Of a DNA stretch of 44,046 nucleotides, positions 1 to 29,856 are shown in pieces (within the stretch, counting starts at the first letter, position 1; every line of letters begins with the position of its first letter). Origin of the DNA: an uncultured Thermococci archaeon (lineage in GTDB: Archaea > Methanobacteriota_B > Thermococci > Thermococcales > CAYNOZ01). Under the pieces are notes generated by a model. That model worked only from the letters and a program-made list of their open reading frames with translations, made no database searches and had not been told where the DNA came from. The stretch covers positions 1,814 through 45,859 of the forward strand of contig CAYNOZ010000002.1 of the NCBI GenBank assembly GCA_964398955.1, given 5' to 3'. Both the position numbers and the translations under genes were made by a program.

Positions 1-64
1 ACGTATCAGGAATAATAAGAGACAAATTCCTAGACTCAATGGGAATAAAAAGAGAGTGAATTGA

Positions 65-140
65 CCTTTCCCTAAAGGGAGAGGTCTTACCCAACCACGA
101 AAAGATAAAAATCATAAAAGAAAACACAAAACAAAATTCA
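65..140 (-). repeat. Copy 1 of a repeated module: T/G-rich leader, TTGGGTAAGACC, then an 8-bp hairpin (read on the minus strand)
   Basis: The reverse complement of 65-140 aligns with 8705-8776 (plus). Shared parts are ttttgtt..gtgtttt, tatcttt, (g/a)gttgggtaagacc, and an 8-bp hairpin (65-84 here). Hairpin positions differ by paired changes that keep base pairing. Confidence 0.6.
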
Positions 141-279: not shown

Positions 280-356
280 TGGTGGGGCCGCTGAGATTTG
301 AACTCAGGTTACCAGCTCCCAAAGCTGGGGGGATAGCCAAACTACCCTACGGCCCC
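280..356 (-). tRNA. tRNA-Pro (anticodon UGG), CCA encoded
   Basis: Manual cloverleaf. Acceptor GGGGCCG/CGGCCCC; anticodon stem CCAGC/GCTGG with loop TTTGGGA; T arm CTGAG-TTCAAAT-CTCAG; discriminator A followed by CCA. Confidence 0.9.
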
Positions 357-4568: not shown

Positions 4569-5075
4569 TTAATCGTTTGCAATACTTCTAAGCATTGATT
4601 TATGGTTTTCAGGAAGGTAGGTTCCCGCTTCTTTAGCTTCTTTTATTAATTTATCGGCTTTTCTGAAACTAATTTTTTCTCTTTCAATTAATTTTCCTAA
4701 AATGCCTAAAGTTCCCTTCAGATTTAAGCCAATTTTTTCACACGCCTCACGTGCTCTCCCATCGTCAAGACAGCAGAAATATTCTTTATTCTTATTATCA
4801 AATTTTTCTCCAAGTGTTAATACTGCTAATTCGCCATCTCCTAAACGAAAATATCTATTAGATAATTCCTCATGTCGATTTTTATCACACTTTATAATCT
4901 TAGAATTATTTAGAATATCTTCTGTTATAGAATTATTCGTATCTACCTCTTCGATGACATTTTGTGGTATGACTATTTCATATTCTGCTTCCAATAGTTT
5001 GTTGAAGATGATGGGTTTTTCAAGTTCCTCTATCCAACTAATAAGAATTGAAGCATCAAGAATAAGTTTAGTCAT
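4569..5075 (-). CDS. PIN-domain toxin (VapC-like; the PIN family that pairs with UPF0175-type antitoxins)
   Basis: N-terminal LILDASILI (first acidic residue). C-terminal CLDDGRAREACEKIGLNLKGTLGILGKL signature. Its ATG overlaps the stop codon of the upstream ORF by 8 nt. Confidence 0.8.
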   Translation of the reverse strand: MTKLILDASILISWIEELEKPIIFNKLLEAEYEIVIPQNVIEEVDTNNSITEDILNNSKIIKCDKNRHEELSNRYFRLGDGELAVLTLGEKFDNKNKEYFCCLDDGRAREACEKIGLNLKGTLGILGKLIEREKISFRKADKLIKEAKEAGTYLPENHKSMLRSIAND

Positions 5076-5667
5076 TTAGTCCACTCTTGAAACTTGATAC
5101 GGATAATCCTGCTAGTTCAGAAGCCTTTTCCAGACTAATTTTCTCCTTTCGATACATATTCTTAGCTAATTTAACTCGATCTTCCTCTATATCCTCCTTC
5201 AAAACTGATTGAGCAGTCATTTCTGGATAAGTCTCATAAATGTACAAAAGAAGTTCATTCTTAGTTAAATCGTTCATAAATCTCTTTATGTCTTCTATTA
5301 AATCAAGAAGATCTTCGTCAGCAATTTCATATATCTTATTTACTATCTCTTTCCCTCTGTGAGTTATTTTAATTTTCGAATTTTCTTTTTTCACGTACCC
5401 CTTAAACTGTAGGTTATCAAGAATATTTTCAACAGTCTCACTGTAAGGGCCTTTGTTATAAGGTTGGAAGTTAAAATAGTCTTCTAATTTCTTTAAATTC
5501 TTTGCTATCATGAAGATTTCTTTCTGAAGCCATAAGTTACTTGGAATTGCTTCCCCGCCATCTGCCTCTAGGAGAATAAGGAATACCTTTTCTACGTCAT
5601 CAATGTCATTGAGGTTATTTTTCTTATTCTCTGAAGTTGAATCCTTGCTTTCCAATACAATCCCCAA
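5068..5667 (-). CDS. Putative antitoxin: N-terminal wHTH-like domain plus C-terminal UPF0175-like HTH
   Basis: The C-terminal KISLEKASELAGLSVSSF resembles the UPF0175 HTH. The ORF is translationally coupled to the PIN gene (overlap AATGACTAA). Confidence 0.6.
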   Translation of the reverse strand: MGIVLESKDSTSENKKNNLNDIDDVEKVFLILLEADGGEAIPSNLWLQKEIFMIAKNLKKLEDYFNFQPYNKGPYSETVENILDNLQFKGYVKKENSKIKITHRGKEIVNKIYEIADEDLLDLIEDIKRFMNDLTKNELLLYIYETYPEMTAQSVLKEDIEEDRVKLAKNMYRKEKISLEKASELAGLSVSSFKSGLND

Positions 5668-6912: not shown

Positions 6913-7332
6913 TTATCTTCCTACTACTGCCCATGCTTGTATATCTGCGTTTACTTCACTTTTCTTTTTTAATGTAGTCTGATGTTCTGGAGATTCATCT
7001 ATATATTCATCTAAGAAGTCCTCAAGTTCATCTAAAAGATCATCTATCTCCCAGTCGGATAGGGCCCTTCCTTTAATAAGTTCTCTTAAAGCTCTGCCTT
7101 CTTCAGTATTCTTGATGGCAATGTTCTTGAATTTCTTAAGAATCTTTTCCGCTCTTTCAGAGTACTTTTCATGTTCAGGAATTATGACCTGTTGAAGGTA
7201 TGCGATTACCATTTCTTGCTGTTTACTTTGTTTCTTTCCCTGTTTATAAACTCCAATAGATTGGTATCTCTCTTTTCTTGCTTTTACTTTTCCTGAATCG
7301 GATCTTTGCCCCAGTTTTTCTGAAGGTAACAT
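6913..7332 (-). CDS. Hypothetical acidic helical protein
   Basis: 139-aa ORF. Its 5' end overlaps the integrase fragment in another frame. An internal ATG at 7212 would remove the overlap. No recognisable motifs. Confidence 0.45.
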   Translation of the reverse strand: MLPSEKLGQRSDSGKVKARKERYQSIGVYKQGKKQSKQQEMVIAYLQQVIIPEHEKYSERAEKILKKFKNIAIKNTEEGRALRELIKGRALSDWEIDDLLDELEDFLDEYIDESPEHQTTLKKKSEVNADIQAWAVVGR

Positions 7333-7873
7333 CTTCCCATTTTACATTAAGAATCTCCCCGATTCTGCCCCCAGTATCCCAAGTAAAAAATATCATCAAT
7401 CTGTCTCTAAACAAGTCCCTGGAATTCATCAGTTTCTTAACTTCGCTTGGTCCTGGTAGTTCTTCCGGTGACGTCATAGGCTTTTTTGATCTTTTGACAT
7501 TGGTAGAGATGAAATCAACGATCTCTGGTTCTTCTTCCCCAGTAAGAAATGAGTAAAATTTTCTTATAGCTTTCTTGAATTCTTTGATGGTCCATACGCT
7601 GTAGTCCTTTTCATTTATTTCGCTGTTATTTATCTTTCCGACTAACTTCTTTAATTCCATTTTATCCGGGTCCAGAAGTGAGAAATCTATGCTTGGGGCC
7701 AGAGTAATGAATGAATACAGATATCTCTGAACAGCTTTCCTTCCAACACCCTCAGCTCTCAAATGCTCCTTGAATTCCAATATTTTTTCCAATTCTTCTC
7801 GAGAATAGTCCGACTCTTTTAGCCGGGAGATAGACTTTTTAAGCCTTCTTTCCATGTTATGTATGTCTGACAT
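7244..7873 (-). pseudogene. Tyrosine recombinase / integrase, truncated after the first catalytic Arg region
   Basis: It has an N-terminal SAM-like core-binding domain, then DTGGRIGEIL (Arg I) and the beta-hairpin KSKSKKREIPI, followed by a stop. None of the three downstream frames shows an HxxR or catalytic Tyr segment. The likely start is the ATG at 7873 (MSDIHNMERRL). Confidence 0.7.
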
Positions 7874-8463
7874 CTTGGACCTCCTTAAGGCGGCCCGCAG
7901 ATCCTTTCTCGGCAACTTAACAAACCAGAGCTTGTTCTCCCAGGGCTCCAATAAAATCTTAAGGAATAAAAATATAACAAAAACCAAAATAAAGAAAAAT
8001 ATTCTTCTAAATTACCTTTAAAACTTTAATGAAACCTCTTAACTGAAAAATATTAATAATACCAACTTAAAACAAGACCTTTAAGAATAGAATAAAAAAA
8101 TCCCAACTAACCTAAAGAACAATAAAAAATGAGGAATTAAAAGAACTAACCAATGCCACGAGTTGGAACCATACAAATCAACAAAAAGCCACAGAAATCA
8201 TCTCACCGAGTTAAAAAAAATTTAATGTTTAATATTTCCCAATTTGTTTGAAATATAAGAATTATAAAATAGATTAATTAATAACATGTTAAATCTCCAT
8301 TTATAAGATAAAATACAAATAAAGAGTCAAAACAAGTAAATCTCGATAAAACTACTTCTCAAATATTTAAAAATTATTTAATATCACATGTGTTTAAAAC
8401 ATATTTTTTAAACATATTCTTTCGAATCATAAATTGTTTAAGGATCTTAATTGATAATTAACT

Positions 8464-8636
8464 GCCGTGGTACTGTAGTAAGTAGTAAGATGACAATGTG
8501 ATCATGGATAGGGAATCATCAGGAAACCATGATGTGAACTCGTGGTGAAAGTTACGGGGGCGCATGATGTTAAAGTTGTGATGTAAAACTATCCATGGCT
8601 TGAACCTGTCATTGGCGAAAACTATGGCGCCACGGC
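8464..8636 (+). ncRNA. Candidate structured small RNA, family unknown
   Basis: Three nested helices: 8464-8470/8630-8636 (GCCGTGG/CCACGGC), 8490-8495/8607-8612 and 8503-8509/8591-8597. Three RTGATGT motifs sit at 8529, 8564 and 8578. A T6 run follows at 8639-8644. There is no ORF, and the segment is GC-rich relative to its flanks. Confidence 0.5.
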
Positions 8637-8704
8637 TATTTTTTGTTATTTAAACATTTCTCATTAAAATTTTATTTTATATTGGTTTTAAATTTGTAAT
8701 TCTA

Positions 8705-8786
8705 TTTAGTTTTTTGTTGTGTTTTTAGTTTTGTTATCTTTCATAGTTGGGTAAGACCTCGTCCCTTAGGGCGAGGATACACCCAA
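8705..8786 (+). repeat. Copy 2 of the leader + TTGGGTAAGACC + hairpin module
   Basis: See copy 1. Here the hairpin is at 8757-8776 and is enclosed by an outer helix TTGGGT(8747-8752)/ACCCAA(8781-8786). Confidence 0.6.
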
Positions 8787-9340
8787 GCTAACCTAACAAT
8801 TTTAAAGTTTAAAATCTTATATCTCGGTAATCTTTTAGAGATGGTCTCTCTATCATGGCTGGTCTAAATTGGCAGTAGGTGTCTGCCTTACCAAAAGCAA
8901 GCATGGACCACTTAAAGATAACTCAGAGCCCTGAGAGGGATATGGGTAACGGTTGCGTGGCACAACCATCAACCTACCTGTTCGATAGGACGGCTGGCAC
9001 CTTCCATCCAAAAGAACAGATAAGTTGCAAACCTTAAAAGACCAACCGAGAAGCCCCGACCCTCAGGACGGGGAGGATGTCAACTTCTTCCTCATGGAGG
9101 CTCCGCCCTTTAGGTCGGAGAGGAAATGAGGCAAAAATATTTATACTTTCCGTGAAATTAAATAGTCAAGTTTGGCTATATTTCAGACTGTTTGGAGGCT
9201 CTGCTGGCGGAGCTGTAAGCAATCCGAGTCTGAAAAGAACCTCTGCAATGCAAGTTCTAAGTATCGGAAGTGCAACCTATAAAGTTCCTGTGTCAGGAAC
9301 CCTCTTCCTCTAGGGAGAGGAGGACGTCAGATGTTAATTG
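8746..9340. ncRNA. Large GC-rich structured noncoding region (one or several ncRNAs), family unknown
   Basis: About 600 nt with no credible ORF, in a genome where intergenic DNA is otherwise very AT-rich. Many local helices are visible: 8757-8776, GGCAG/CTGCC 8871-8887, GGTTG/CAACC 8951-8967, CCCCG/CGGGG 9054-9073, CCTCAT/ATGAGG 9090-9131 (enclosing hairpin 9101-9120), TCAGACT/AGTCTGA 9183-9233, GTTCCTG/CAGGAAC 9284-9300, and hairpin 9301-9323. Confidence 0.5.
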
Positions 9341-9385
9341 CCTTTTATAGGGCTGATTTTGAGTGAGTTGGGTGGGGAAGGTGTT

Positions 9386-10036
9386 TTAGTAGCCTAGTTT
9401 TTCTTTTATGATTATTATTGTTGTGTCTGTTCTGGTTGGTTTTCTGTGTTGTATTGTTGTGATTTTACATATTCTATCTTCTGATTTGCAGTTGCTGCAT
9501 TTTCCTGTTTGGGCGCATGGTACGTTTTTATTGAGTCTTTTAGCGTTTTTTGGTGCTGCAACATTTCTTACTCTTTCTATTCCCTTATCCACGTTTTCCA
9601 CGATCTTATTTATTCCTGCGACTATTATTACTTGATCTGGTCCGAATATCATGGAAGCTACTCTTTGTCCTGTGCTATCAATGTTTATTAATTCCCCTGT
9701 CTCAGTTAGGGCATTTGTGCTGGAGATGAAAACATCTGATGTTAGCTGGTTCTTCCTTACTTGGTTCATTTCTTCGCCTTTGAGACCGCTCATCTTTGCT
9801 TTTCTATTATCCGCCACCTCATATCCTTCATCGATTAGAATATCGGATAAACCAATATCTTCTACTGTTACTGAATCCCCAATCCCAATTCTAGCCTTAT
9901 CCGGAATTAAATCCATTATTTTAGAGACCGATTCTTCTTTATTAGAAACAGAAAAGGCTTTAAAATCATTTTTACGAAAACTTTCCACTGCTCTACCTAC
10001 CTTAGTATCTGAATACCATCTTTCCTCATCCCTCAA
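9386..10036 (-). CDS. LUD (DUF162, LutC/YkgG-like) domain protein
   Basis: VIIVAGINKIVENVDKGIERVRNVAAPKNAKRLN and a Cys-rich C-terminus (CAQTGKCSNCKSEDRIC). The start is uncertain: TTG at 10036 (MRDEERWY) fits the family N-terminus, but the open frame extends to 10144. Confidence 0.75.
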   Translation of the reverse strand: MRDEERWYSDTKVGRAVESFRKNDFKAFSVSNKEESVSKIMDLIPDKARIGIGDSVTVEDIGLSDILIDEGYEVADNRKAKMSGLKGEEMNQVRKNQLTSDVFISSTNALTETGELINIDSTGQRVASMIFGPDQVIIVAGINKIVENVDKGIERVRNVAAPKNAKRLNKNVPCAQTGKCSNCKSEDRICKITTIQHRKPTRTDTTIIIIKEKLGY

Positions 10037-10453
10037 AAACCAACACCACCCAAAATAATTAATAAATAAGAATAAGTTTTTCGGATCCCATGACACATTA
10101 ACGCTAAACTTGAAATAGAAAAAATTAGAATCAACTATTAACAATTATTGATAGATAAGTAATTCAATAATTTTGAGTTTAAACAATTATTATGTGTTTA
10201 ATTTAAATTGATTTGATGTGATTGTTCAAGAATATAATTTAATGTTTATTATAGTTCAGGTTATTCTCTAAAAACTAAAAATAATAATTTTAATTACTAA
10301 TAAATATGGTGGTTGACTGAGGCAAGTTTTATAAGGTACTTATCCTTATATAAGACAGATGTACAAAGATCAATTAAAACAGAATCAATCAAATTTCATA
10401 AAAATTTATTCTAAAAACCTAAAATCCACAATTAAAAAAGATTGGGGATTCCA

Positions 10454-29778: not shown

Positions 29779-29856
29779 TGGTGGGGCCGCTGAGATTTGA
29801 ACTCAGGTATCTAGCGCCCCATGCTAGGAGGATAGTCCAAGCTACCCTACGGCCCC
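29779..29856 (-). tRNA. tRNA-Pro (anticodon GGG), CCA encoded
   Basis: Acceptor GGGGCCG/CGGCCCC; anticodon stem CTAGC/GCTAG with loop ATGGGGC. The T arm and 3' end are identical to tRNA-Pro(UGG) at 280-356. Confidence 0.88.

Follow-up and report, generated by a model that had tools for sequence, protein, structure and literature searches.

The GC-rich block at positions 8746–9340 of the window (the whole stretch of 44,046 nucleotides that was analyzed) is very probably formed by two abutting gene-less derivatives of IS200/IS605 transposons of the IS1341 group, TnpB-type, which resemble the mini-elements called PATEs (Table 1). Elements of this kind are already known and fairly frequent in archaea, and the block is not a new large RNA. 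Its parts are homologous, one by one, to parts of tnpB-bearing elements, one of which belongs to the same MAG, and the tnpB gene has been lost. The scaffold helices covary within their family, and the same gene-less architecture recurs elsewhere. Between the ends of either unit there are only open reading frames of at most 78 aa, none with a Pfam match, and a tnpB remnant of 40 codons. The 44 kb window contains no further trace of tnpB or tnpA.

Table 1. Features of the two units and of the second copy of the left-end module (window coordinates).
Feature	Position	Strand	Remarks
TTAT, candidate transposon-adjacent motif (TAM)	8734–8737	+	directly 5' of unit 1 left end
Left end (LE) of unit 1	8738–8800	+	nested hairpin 8747–8786, inner hairpin 8757–8776
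Filler without detectable homolog	8801–8912	+	AT-rich TATA-like stretch 8800–8823; local hairpin 8871–8887
Omega-RNA (sotRNA) scaffold and right end (RE) of unit 1	8913–9082	+	Rfam, tblastn, identity to L250
Last 40 codons of tnpB and stop	8915–9037	+	within unit 1 scaffold
RE hairpin of unit 1	9054–9073	+	
Terminal AGGATGTCA of unit 1	9074–9082	+	
Left-end-type hairpin module of unit 2	9083–9131	+	outer helix 9090–9131, inner hairpin 9101–9120, then AGGAAATGA
gcaaaaatatttatac, BRE/TATA-like stretch	9131–9146	+	directly after unit 2 left hairpin
HgcC-like omega-RNA-type scaffold and right end of unit 2	9183–9329	+	Rfam HgcC, model R1
Long-range helix of unit 2	9183–9233	+	
Hairpin of unit 2	9284–9300	+	
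RE hairpin of unit 2	9301–9320	+	
Terminal AGGACGTCA of unit 2	9321–9329	+	right-end hairpin ends GGAGGACGTCA
RE flank of unit 2, putative guide position	9330–9346	+	by position only; T-run 9343–9346
Second copy of left-end module	55–108	−	TTAT 108–105, hairpin 84–65; ~143 nt downstream of tRNA-Pro

The first-pass annotation described the block as GC-rich, helix-dense, and devoid of credible genes, and these observations hold. The GC content is 45.9% across 8746–9340, against 15–22% in the adjoining non-coding spacers (21.9% at 7990–8460, 14.7% at 8637–8745, and 20.2% at 10145–10441) and 32.8% for the whole window, and it reaches 51.2% in the core of unit 1 and 49.7% in that of unit 2. No open reading frame of at least 80 aa is located within the block. 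The 78-aa frame at 9077–9313 was rejected as a gene, since it has no Pfam match and spans the junction of the two units (9082/9083), running from the right-end tail of unit 1 into the right-end hairpin of unit 2. Every helix listed previously forms as described when folded alone. The fold of the whole block, compared with dinucleotide shuffles, has z-scores of −3.2 on the plus strand and −5.0 on the minus strand, and none of 100 shuffles equaled it on either strand. Because the hairpins form on both strands, the density of helices alone is no proof of an RNA. Both the GC-richness and the helix density are accounted for by scaffolds and end hairpins placed in an otherwise AT-rich host genome. 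The hairpins are of the type of single-strand DNA hairpin borne by the ends of IS200/IS605 elements.

A search of the whole window at the gathering thresholds of Rfam identifies three tRNAs and nothing else. In E-value mode, significant matches appear below the gathering scores, which are 88 bits for sot0042 (RF02656) and 50 bits for HgcC (RF00062). The sot0042 model matches 8916–9074 with 62.0 bits (E 3.9e-15), and HgcC matches 9058–9143 with 34.5 bits (E 6.6e-06) and 9194–9343 with 34.1 bits (E 8.8e-06). These three matches contradict the earlier statement that the block fits no RNA family. The first-pass annotation saw no hallmarks of RNase P, SRP, group II introns, or rRNA, and no covariance model of RNase P, SRP, group I or II introns, or rRNA matched even at an E-value of 10 at 8200–9600 on both strands. 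Genuine tnpB-linked 3' ends also remain below threshold, with 78.6–79.9 bits for sot0042 and 38.8–44.3 bits for HgcC. Intact tnpB-linked relatives from the same clade miss the sot0042 cut-off (78.6 and 79.9 bits), indicating that it reflects the haloarchaeal seed of the model. The alignment of unit 1 covers the whole sot0042 model, positions 1–174. That of unit 2 (9194–9343) covers the full HgcC model, positions 1–130, and includes the complete HgcC architecture of a 5' hairpin, a variable region, two adjoining 3' hairpins, and a AGGAGGUCAG tail. The covariance model R1, which was built from metagenomic sequences only, with the window excluded, ranks unit 2 first in the whole window (9190–9329, 29.2 bits, E 2e-4, model positions 1–120) ahead of unit 1 (26.3 bits, E 9e-4), which comes second.

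Unit 1 (8738–9082) begins with a left end that aligns upstream of intact tnpB genes in the same-MAG element L250 and in the loci L053 and L251. The shared pattern is TTATCTT..GGGyTAAGACCTC, a hairpin, and GATACAsCC; on its own, the hairpin of unit 1 matches model R1 at 13 bits. The tetranucleotide TTAT is positioned 18–27 nt ahead of the foot of the left-end hairpin in five copies (unit 1, window positions 108–105 on the minus strand, L250, L053, and L251), and the sequence upstream of it is not conserved among them. Judging from these five sequences, TTAT may be the TAM, and the exact left boundaries are likewise provisional. Neither blastn nor nhmmer, run on about 245 fetched loci, matched the filler behind the left end (query 8787–8912), and a tblastn search with TnpB did not match it either. 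Its AT-rich stretch is a putative promoter.

The remainder of unit 1 is derived from the 3' end of a tnpB element. Residues 386–425 of the TnpB of L053 match window positions 8915–9034 with 87.5% identity (tblastn, E 2e-18), and the 52-aa frame at 8879–9037 is a remnant of tnpB from the C-terminal end of the protein. The remnant has the same frame and the same stop position (+89) as L053, and the gene is deleted upstream of codon 386. A protein-coding frame, which the first-pass annotation had named as a result that would refute its idea, is present, but only as a 40-codon tnpB relic that overlaps the omega-RNA scaffold. A word-index protein search with the 40-aa remnant returned no match. Between the tnpB-derived part of unit 1 and the 3' end of intact L250, 153 of 169 positions are identical (90.5%), and all relatives terminate at GGAGGATGTCA.

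The motif GTAACGGN5TGGCACANCCATC, taken from unit 1, matches more than 120 genome loci, 84 of which have enough upstream sequence to be judged. The motif is positioned within the 3' end of an open reading frame of at least 350 codons in 67 of the 84 loci, and the stop codon lies exactly 83 or 89 nt downstream of it in 66. Two of the motif-bearing reading frames have OrfB_IS605 and Cas12f1-like TNB domains. The genome-wide scan is dominated by haloarchaea, with L053 as the only close relative among the matches listed, and the motif has no match in the scan of viral contigs. In an alignment of 41 relatives, 95.6% of cells pair, compared with 39–47% in slid controls, and 14 of the 32 pairs display compensatory changes. 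None of 500 shuffles reached the covariation score of the alignment. A conserved structure of the scaffold helices is therefore supported in the unit 1 family. The right-end terminus GGAGGAyGTCA is near-invariant across 41 + 32 sequences. The copy of the scaffold in the window retains 27 of the 32 consensus pairs; the five broken pairs, among them a C-A mismatch at 8977/9020, indicate that the scaffold of unit 1 may be decaying.

Unit 2 (9083–9329) probably belongs to a second subfamily, as judged from its architecture, its right end, and the scores of covariance models. Its scaffold (9183–9329) has a fold z-score of −2.96. The body of the unit (query 9132–9300) has no blastn or nhmmer match among all fetched loci, and neither viral contigs nor metagenomes yielded a match in scans specific for its right end. 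The left hairpin module has a local match to model R1 (12.9 bits) and resembles the hairpin (GGAAGCTCCGAGCTTTAGCTCGGAGAGGAATTAGGGG) located 168 nt before the right end of a gene-less element in locus L169. It is equally possible that the hairpin at 9101–9120 is not the left end of unit 2 but a degenerate right end standing alone. The stretch gcaaaaatatttatac, a putative promoter, is placed where metagenomic mini-elements have AAAGCTTATAA after their left hairpin.

Right ends of the HgcC type, which that of unit 2 matches, occur both with and without tnpB. In a tnpA-tnpB element (L123), such a right end is located at the tnpB stop codon. Of the 75 metagenomic copies that could be assessed, 27 are located at the end of a tnpB-size open reading frame, which enters the HgcC-type hairpin with its stop codon in the loop; the remaining copies are orphans. 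A left-type hairpin is present upstream of 18 of 65 orphan right ends, at a spacing of 143–293 nt in 17 of these mini-elements and 401 nt in one, and a AAAGCTTATAA-like stretch usually comes next after it. The left hairpin of unit 2 precedes its right end by 194 nt, which is inside the 143–293 nt range. The tnpB-linked scaffolds of the HgcC type belong to at least five subfamilies that have the right end alone in common. Because the subfamilies cannot be aligned with each other, there is no single covariance model for HgcC-type 3' regions.

The opening module of the block was correctly recognized as repeated elsewhere in the window. Positions 8704–8776 are 74% complementary to 65–137 on the opposite strand and, together with the second left-end copy, constitute inverted repeat I1; the hairpin at 65–84 on the minus strand matches model R1 with 12.4 bits. 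These modules were considered as integrase attachment sites and rejected, since they are inverted and not direct repeats and match the left ends of tnpB elements. The tRNA-Pro segments at 280 and 29779 were similarly dismissed as attachment-site duplicates, as they belong to two different tRNA-Pro genes. The integrase remnant reported next to the block is real (Phage_integrase, residues 181–243 only); it adjoins the block without a demonstrated link to it. The spacer that holds the block is bordered by this remnant and by a LUD-domain gene. The neighboring rod-like RNA has no match in the viral-contig scan.

The MAG GCA_905333395.1 holds contigs that are 99.8–99.99% identical to the window. 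It also contains contig CAJOUM010000218, which encodes an intact 417-aa TnpB (P0123). The left end of the intact element of this MAG, L250, aligns to 8734–8800. The conclusion that the contig with the intact tnpB comes from the same organism as the window relies on metagenomic binning. The short-read contigs of the MAG break at 9211 and 9281, inside the block, contig L125 departs from the window at position 55, and the L250 contig breaks 1 nt past its right end. Such breaks at 9211, at 9281, and just past the L250 element are what repeats would produce, and they suggest that further copies exist in the genome. No tnpA was detected in the window by tblastn with TnpA or beside the related tnpB genes; mobility would therefore need a transposase from elsewhere.

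In this very probable reading, unit 1 consists of a left-end hairpin, about 110 nt of unrelated filler, and the last 170 nt of its parent element, a segment that encodes the scaffold of the TnpB guide RNA and closes with the right-end hairpin and GGAGGATGTCA. Unit 2 repeats this layout in another subfamily, with a left-type hairpin, a TATA-like stretch, an HgcC-like scaffold, a right-end hairpin, and GGAGGACGTCA. From the biology of IS200/IS605 elements, we infer that the end hairpins may be single-strand DNA sites for a Y1 TnpA acting in trans. The AT-rich stretch behind each left hairpin may drive transcription of an omega-type RNA, the 3' flank of which (from 9083 in unit 1 and from 9330 in unit 2) would guide a TnpB supplied in trans. 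The intact 417-aa protein encoded on CAJOUM010000218 is a candidate for this TnpB. Both expression of the RNAs and their use by TnpB in trans are thus predictions. The right-end flank of unit 2 has no second match within the window, and the three right-end flanks considered as candidate guides have only chance-level second sites there.

The leading idea of the first-pass annotation, a single structured RNA of about 600 nt that would represent a new class with a ribozyme-like or scaffold role, has next to no chance of being correct. The block is indeed GC-rich, ORF-free, and helix-dense, folds with a z-score of −3.2 on the plus strand, and matches no Rfam family at its gathering score. But each module is separately homologous to IS200/IS605 ends, and two Rfam families cover the block below their thresholds. 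It is neither one large RNA nor a new class. The boundaries of the elements at 9082 and 9329 are sharp, the parts are found independently in other genomes, beside tnpB or alone, and assemblies break within the block. The even better fold of the minus strand (z −5.0) fits palindromic DNA hairpins, and the absence of RNase P, SRP, intron, and rRNA families extends to an E-value of 10. The two other options offered at the time, a cluster of small RNAs and a mobile-element RNA, are favored in combination: two RNA modules derived from mobile elements are clustered together with the hairpins of their transposon ends. It is improbable that the units are domesticated host small RNAs, i.e., HgcC-type genes that work without TnpB, for example as regulators, and for which the transposon ancestry is only historical. 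HgcC RNAs have been found as stand-alone expressed GC-rich genes in AT-rich hyperthermophiles, each unit has a TATA-like stretch of its own, and overexpression of sotRNA and PATE RNA improved the growth of Halobacterium salinarum. Orthologous, syntenic conservation of the units is not in evidence, however, and the terminus of each unit coincides exactly with a transposon right end, with unit 1 also keeping the transposon left end. They appear to be multi-copy, an intact cognate TnpB is present in the same MAG, and the flanking sequences have no candidate target within the window.

It is possible, if somewhat doubtful, that both units are inert debris: old, decaying insertions that are untranscribed, immobile, and without present function. 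The 40 remaining tnpB codons, the five broken consensus pairs out of 32, the ~10% divergence between unit 1 and the intact same-MAG copy, the replacement of the gene by an unrelated 110-nt filler, the lack of a detected tnpA, and the truncated integrase in the neighborhood are consistent with such decay. However, unit 1 is not a random fragment, as it retains the whole scaffold (sot0042 positions 1–174) and both ends. The same architecture in 18 metagenomic mini-elements argues for a selected or propagating form, and the contig breaks suggest additional genomic copies. Furthermore, a PATE-derived RNA of H. salinarum is expressed, and its overexpression alters growth (PMC4615843).

Among known systems, unit 1 is closest to the omega RNAs of TnpB. 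The sot0042 RNA is a transcript of H. salinarum that overlaps the 3' end of an IS1341-type tnpB (PMC4615843), and the authors of that study now treat it as an omega RNA (PMC12558985). Unit 1 shares with VNG_sot0042 the GGyUG-N7-CArCC hairpin, the long-range helix, the right-end hairpin, and the terminal GGAGGATGTCA, and the last 40 tnpB codons lie within it in the frame of intact genes. In contrast to the sotRNA loci, the upstream part of tnpB is deleted in unit 1 and a left end and filler are present instead, and the score of 62 bits falls short of the gathering threshold (88 bits). Nor is the host a haloarchaeon: it is AT-rich, and its nearest named TrpRS relatives are from Thermococcus (64–68% identity), while a related genome encodes a TrpRS with 83% identity (P0002).

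HgcC RNAs are encoded by GC-rich genes of AT-rich hyperthermophiles, including Methanocaldococcus and Pyrococcus, and their function is listed as unknown. Unit 2 is likewise a stand-alone GC-rich island in AT-rich DNA, and it matches all 130 positions of the family: the 5' hairpin, the variable middle, and the GGAAC hairpin, followed by a CCnnnnCC-UnUA-GGnnnnGG hairpin and AGGAnGUCAG. It differs in its score (34 bits vs the gathering score of 50) and in its middle part, which is unlike any fetched sequence. In Archaeoglobus fulgidus 7324, hgcC has been reported in an inserted, tRNA-flanked region, and unit 2 similarly has a tRNA gene and an integrase remnant in its vicinity. In the papers searched, the link between HgcC and IS200/IS605 is stated for the tetraloop hairpin only (PMC4615843), and no other paper among them mentions both HgcC and TnpB. 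The tnpB-linked and orphan right ends described here concretely support the view that the HgcC family, long without an explanation, is the right-end and omega-RNA part of TnpB-type IS200/IS605 elements and of their gene-less mini-derivatives.

In PATEs of haloarchaea and Geobacillus stearothermophilus, the left and right ends of IS200/IS605 elements are joined without a protein gene, as they are in the block. PATEs carry an omega RNA that would need TnpB in trans (PMC10055086), and the units resemble them in carrying an omega-type RNA module while a cognate tnpB element is present in the same genome. The block differs from PATEs in the tandem arrangement of two different units, 0–8 nt apart, and in the ~110 nt of unrelated filler in unit 1.

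CRISPR arrays and TldR systems have repeated modules that are each followed by a unique guide-like flank, with the nuclease encoded elsewhere. The block is similar in that its hairpin-bearing right-end modules are followed by short unique flanks, the would-be guides. It contains just two or three non-identical units, however, without adaptation machinery, and targets of the flanks in the window are at chance level only. That the tandem, with its putative promoters, is a maintained two-guide locus and not debris, in which the flanks from 9083 and 9330 would guide a TnpB encoded elsewhere or a nuclease-dead derivative, is a long shot. If true, the locus would stand naturally midway between the right end of a transposon and either a regulator guided by RNA or an array like those of CRISPR.

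Screens for new RNA genes classically look for islands in AT-rich archaeal genomes that are GC-rich and dense in helices. In this case, exactly this signature arises from IS200/IS605 ends and omega-RNA scaffolds, which remain under the curated cut-offs of Rfam. The main value of the finding is in annotation and method, and it opens no new RNA class. Because the uncultured archaeon has both an intact 417-aa TnpB and two orphan scaffolds, the pair may be of some interest for the mining of compact RNA-guided nucleases.

The block at positions 8746-9340 of the window is formed by two abutting units, 8738-9082 and 9083-9329, which are PATE-like (palindrome-associated transposable element), orphan omega-RNA/HgcC-type elements, a kind already known. 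The block has a GC content of 45.9%, compared to 14.7-21.9% in the adjoining non-coding DNA and 32.8% in the whole window. It contains no ORF of at least 80 aa, and its 78-aa frame has no Pfam match, in agreement with its description in the first-pass annotation as GC-rich, ORF-free, and helix-dense. Each of the helices listed there forms on folding alone. On either strand the fold of the block is better than that of dinucleotide shuffles (z -3.2 on plus, -5.0 on minus), an early sign that many of the helices may be palindromic hairpins of DNA no less than RNA helices.

The block had been placed outside any RNA family. This holds at the Rfam gathering thresholds, where three tRNAs are the only matches in the window and nothing is found in the block, but in E-value mode the region 8200-9600 has significant sub-threshold matches to sot0042 and HgcC (Table). 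The sot0042 RNA is a sense-overlapping transcript from the 3' end of an IS1341-type tnpB of Halobacterium salinarum, and its right-end-like tetraloop hairpin is also present in HgcC RNAs (PMC4615843). Such transcripts are now regarded as TnpB omega RNAs by the describers of sot0042 (PMC12558985). The 3' ends linked to tnpB that served as calibrators score 38.8-44.3 bits with HgcC and 78.6-79.9 bits with sot0042. The gathering scores are missed by all of these too, which puts the sub-threshold scores of the window in the range of true members. Of the readings proposed previously, a cluster of small, mobile-element RNAs stands, whereas a large RNA of a new class is unsupported; parts of the block match known tnpB-element ends and Rfam families.

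Features of the block and matches to it (window positions unless a contig is named)
Feature	Position	Score	Remark
sot0042 (RF02656)	8916-9074	62 bits, E 3.9e-15	whole model; below gathering threshold
HgcC (RF00062)	9058-9143	34.5 bits	below gathering threshold
HgcC (RF00062)	9194-9343	34.1 bits	below gathering threshold
Unit 1 left end	8738-8800		aligns to region upstream of intact tnpB
Unit 1 filler, ~110 nt	between left end and scaffold		no homologue detected
Unit 1 putative omega-RNA scaffold and right end	8913-9082		tnpB-element 3' end homology
Covariance model, rank 1	unit 2, 9190-9329	29.2 bits, E 2e-4	full length
Covariance model, rank 2	unit 1	26.3 bits, E 9e-4	
Covariance model, bare hairpins	8757, 9087, 65 (-)	~13 bits	
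L125 segment at the window-55 departure	L125 1412-1652		

The motif GTAACGGN5TGGCACANCCATC, common to the window and the sot0042 consensus, was found in a genome scan at more than 120 loci, nearly all of them haloarchaeal. Of the listed matches, 84 have enough upstream sequence; in 67 of these the motif falls within the 3' end of an ORF of 350 codons or more, and in 66 of the 67 ORFs the stop codon follows the motif at exactly 83 or 89 nt. OrfB_IS605 and Cas12f1-like TNB domains were found in two motif-bearing ORFs. The 52-aa frame of the window has its stop at +89, as does the tnpB of L053, a Thermoplasmata MAG locus and the only non-halophile among the motif matches listed. In a tblastn search of the whole window with the L053 TnpB, the only matching segment was 8915-9034, which encodes the last 40 TnpB residues (87.5% identity, E 2e-18). 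The DNA of 8913-9082 aligns with L053 and the haloarchaeal elements, all of which terminate at GGAGGATGTCA; similarity is lost past GGAGGATGTCA, which is thus the right end of unit 1. Judged by these alignments, unit 1 is a left end, a filler, and a predicted omega-RNA scaffold with right end, from which the tnpB gene is gone. In five copies of the left end, TTAT is located 18-27 nt 5' of the foot of the hairpin; it is a candidate transposon-adjacent motif.

Searched against protein sequences, the L053 TnpB matched a 417-aa protein (P0123, 82% identity), the gene of which is on L250 (CAJOUM010000218), a separate contig of the MAG assembly GCA_905333395.1. Contigs L001, L125, and L127 of this assembly are 99.8-99.99% identical to the window. 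Window positions 8913-9082 are identical to the 3' end and right end of the L250 element at 153 of 169 positions, and the contig terminates 1 nt past that right end. The region upstream of the L250 tnpB aligns to 8734-8800 (TTATCTT..GGGyTAAGACCTC, hairpin, GATACAsCC), and a left-end module of this type is also positioned 5' of tnpB in L053 and another locus, L251. The intact L250 tnpB belongs to the organism of the window, with binning as the one caveat.

The scaffold of unit 1 was aligned with that of L053 and with 39 haloarchaeal copies, among which no two of similar length had a similarity ratio above 0.93. For these 41 sequences RNAalifold predicted 32 pairs, with 95.6% of cells paired. 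The covariation sought by the first-pass annotation is present as compensatory changes in 14 of the 32 pairs; the score was equalled by none of 500 column shuffles, and pairing falls to 39-47% when the partners are slid by 1-3 columns. Covariation occurs at 7/13 pairs of the long-range helix 8970-8983/9014-9027 and at 6/8 pairs of the right-end hairpin 9054-9073. The window copy retains 27 of the 32 pairs. The previously listed helix 8951-8967 is a nearly invariant hairpin of the family. The pairing 9048-9053/9084-9089 spans the element boundary and is without comparative support.

The pattern GGAACCN5CCTNTAGGN5GAGGANGTCAG, based on both the right end of unit 2 and the HgcC consensus, matched a complete tnpA-tnpB element (L123) in viral contigs, the tnpB ORF of which enters the right-end hairpin, and at least 120 metagenome loci. 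Of the listed copies, 75 have 1400 nt or more of upstream sequence; 27 of these terminate an ORF of 300 codons or longer, and the other 48 lack such an ORF. In tnpB-linked HgcC-type copies the stop is usually the TAG of the right-end hairpin loop. Since tnpB reads into this hairpin, coding sequence, guide-RNA scaffold, and transposase site overlap. In most HgcC-type elements (e.g. L123, L134, L149, L200) the TAG in the loop (CCCTTTAGGG) is 20 nt before the element end. The tnpB-linked scaffolds with this type of right end form at least five unalignable subfamilies.

Of the 65 listed orphans, 18 carry a left-type hairpin upstream; its distance to the right end is 143-293 nt in 17 of them and 401 nt in the remaining one. 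Among the loci shown, this hairpin commonly has TTAC(A)AC-TGAAAG on its 5' side and a BRE/TATA-like sequence, for example AAAGCTTATAA, on its 3' side. These 18 copies are complete gene-less mini-elements. Such elements, 200-330 nt long, are a common sight in JGI metagenomes (L128, L136, L139, L167, L197, L202, L244, and others), with the layout TTAC(A)AC-TGAAAG, left hairpin, AAAGCTTATAA, GATGATGA motif, scaffold, and HgcC-type right end. Unit 2 has the mini-element order of hairpin (9101-9120, similar to that of L169), gcaaaaatatttatac, scaffold, right-end hairpin (9301-9320), and end (9329), with a hairpin-to-right-end spacing of 194 nt. A covariance model built from 32 sequences, all from outside the window, was run on the whole window with filters off and recovered both units (Table). 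In the blastn and nhmmer comparisons with the fetched loci, no homologue was found for the filler of unit 1. No sequence-level relative was found for the middle of unit 2, which makes the assignment of unit 2 weaker than that of unit 1.

Sequence comparison establishes the ancestry and architecture of the units. By analogy to IS200/IS605 biology, TnpA would recognize the end hairpins in single-stranded DNA. The scaffolds may be transcribed into omega RNAs with the 3' flank as guide, as in TnpB biology, and the orphan copies would rely on TnpB in trans. PATEs, elements that "often encode omega RNAs", have been proposed to rely on TnpB in this way (PMC10055086). The window contains neither tnpA nor an intact tnpB, and no second match to the right-end flanks, the candidate guides.

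The module that opens the block was said to be repeated in the window, and a second copy of this left end is indeed located at 55-108 (-), ~143 nt downstream of tRNA-Pro(TGG); the body of that element, if any, would extend past the window start. Short-read contigs end inside unit 2 (L001 at 9281, L127 at 9211, with an overlap of 71 nt). L125 is 99.8% identical to the window as far as position 55, a little beyond the hairpin of the second left end; past it the two are unrelated, owing either to a difference between strains or to a join made at a repeat during assembly. The breaks at 55, 9211, and 9281 are those expected of multi-copy sequences. Tandem right ends occur in L144 (1551-1659, two hairpins 74 nt apart), and in L122 (~2650-2700, -) a right end is followed ~45 nt on by a left-type module, GGGCTAAAGAG..CCTTGTCCTTTAGGGCGAGG. 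These tandems resemble that of the window and suggest repeated insertion beside resident ends.

The tryptophanyl-tRNA synthetase of the window shares 64-68% identity with Thermococcus proteins and 83% with a MAG protein, pointing to an uncultured, AT-rich archaeal host whose nearest named relatives for this protein are in Thermococcus. The smaller RNA candidate at 8464-8636 (+) is a rod-like structure of ~175 nt followed by a T-run; the stem GCCGUGG/CCACGGC closes its end, and several internal motifs are of the UGAUG/GAUGA type. Its predicted folding energy is -70.7 kcal/mol (z -6.5) on the plus strand and only -44.7 on the minus strand; the asymmetry points to G-U pairs, and hence to a probable RNA on the plus strand. 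It has no Rfam match even at E 10, and none in the fetched loci or viral contigs.

The integrase had been called a remnant, and the Phage_integrase profile is matched only at positions 6-71 of 172. Its ORF (7244-7987, -) overlaps the next one (6913-7332, -), and from the partial match and the overlap it is truncated. Region 7950-8550 has only ~24% GC. Together with tRNA-Pro 280-356, these features may be traces of an element integrated long ago; a search for attachment-site repeats found none. The two tRNA-Pro genes, 280-356 (-) TGG and 29779-29856 (-) GGG, are 84% identical over 62 nt; ARAGORN lists both, and Rfam at the gathering score only 280-356, where MAG contigs also break (278 and 295). 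Adjacent small genes at 4569-5667 (-) carry UPF0175 and DUF3368, the latter a PIN-like domain, and look like a toxin-antitoxin pair, which would fit a neighbourhood rich in mobile DNA.
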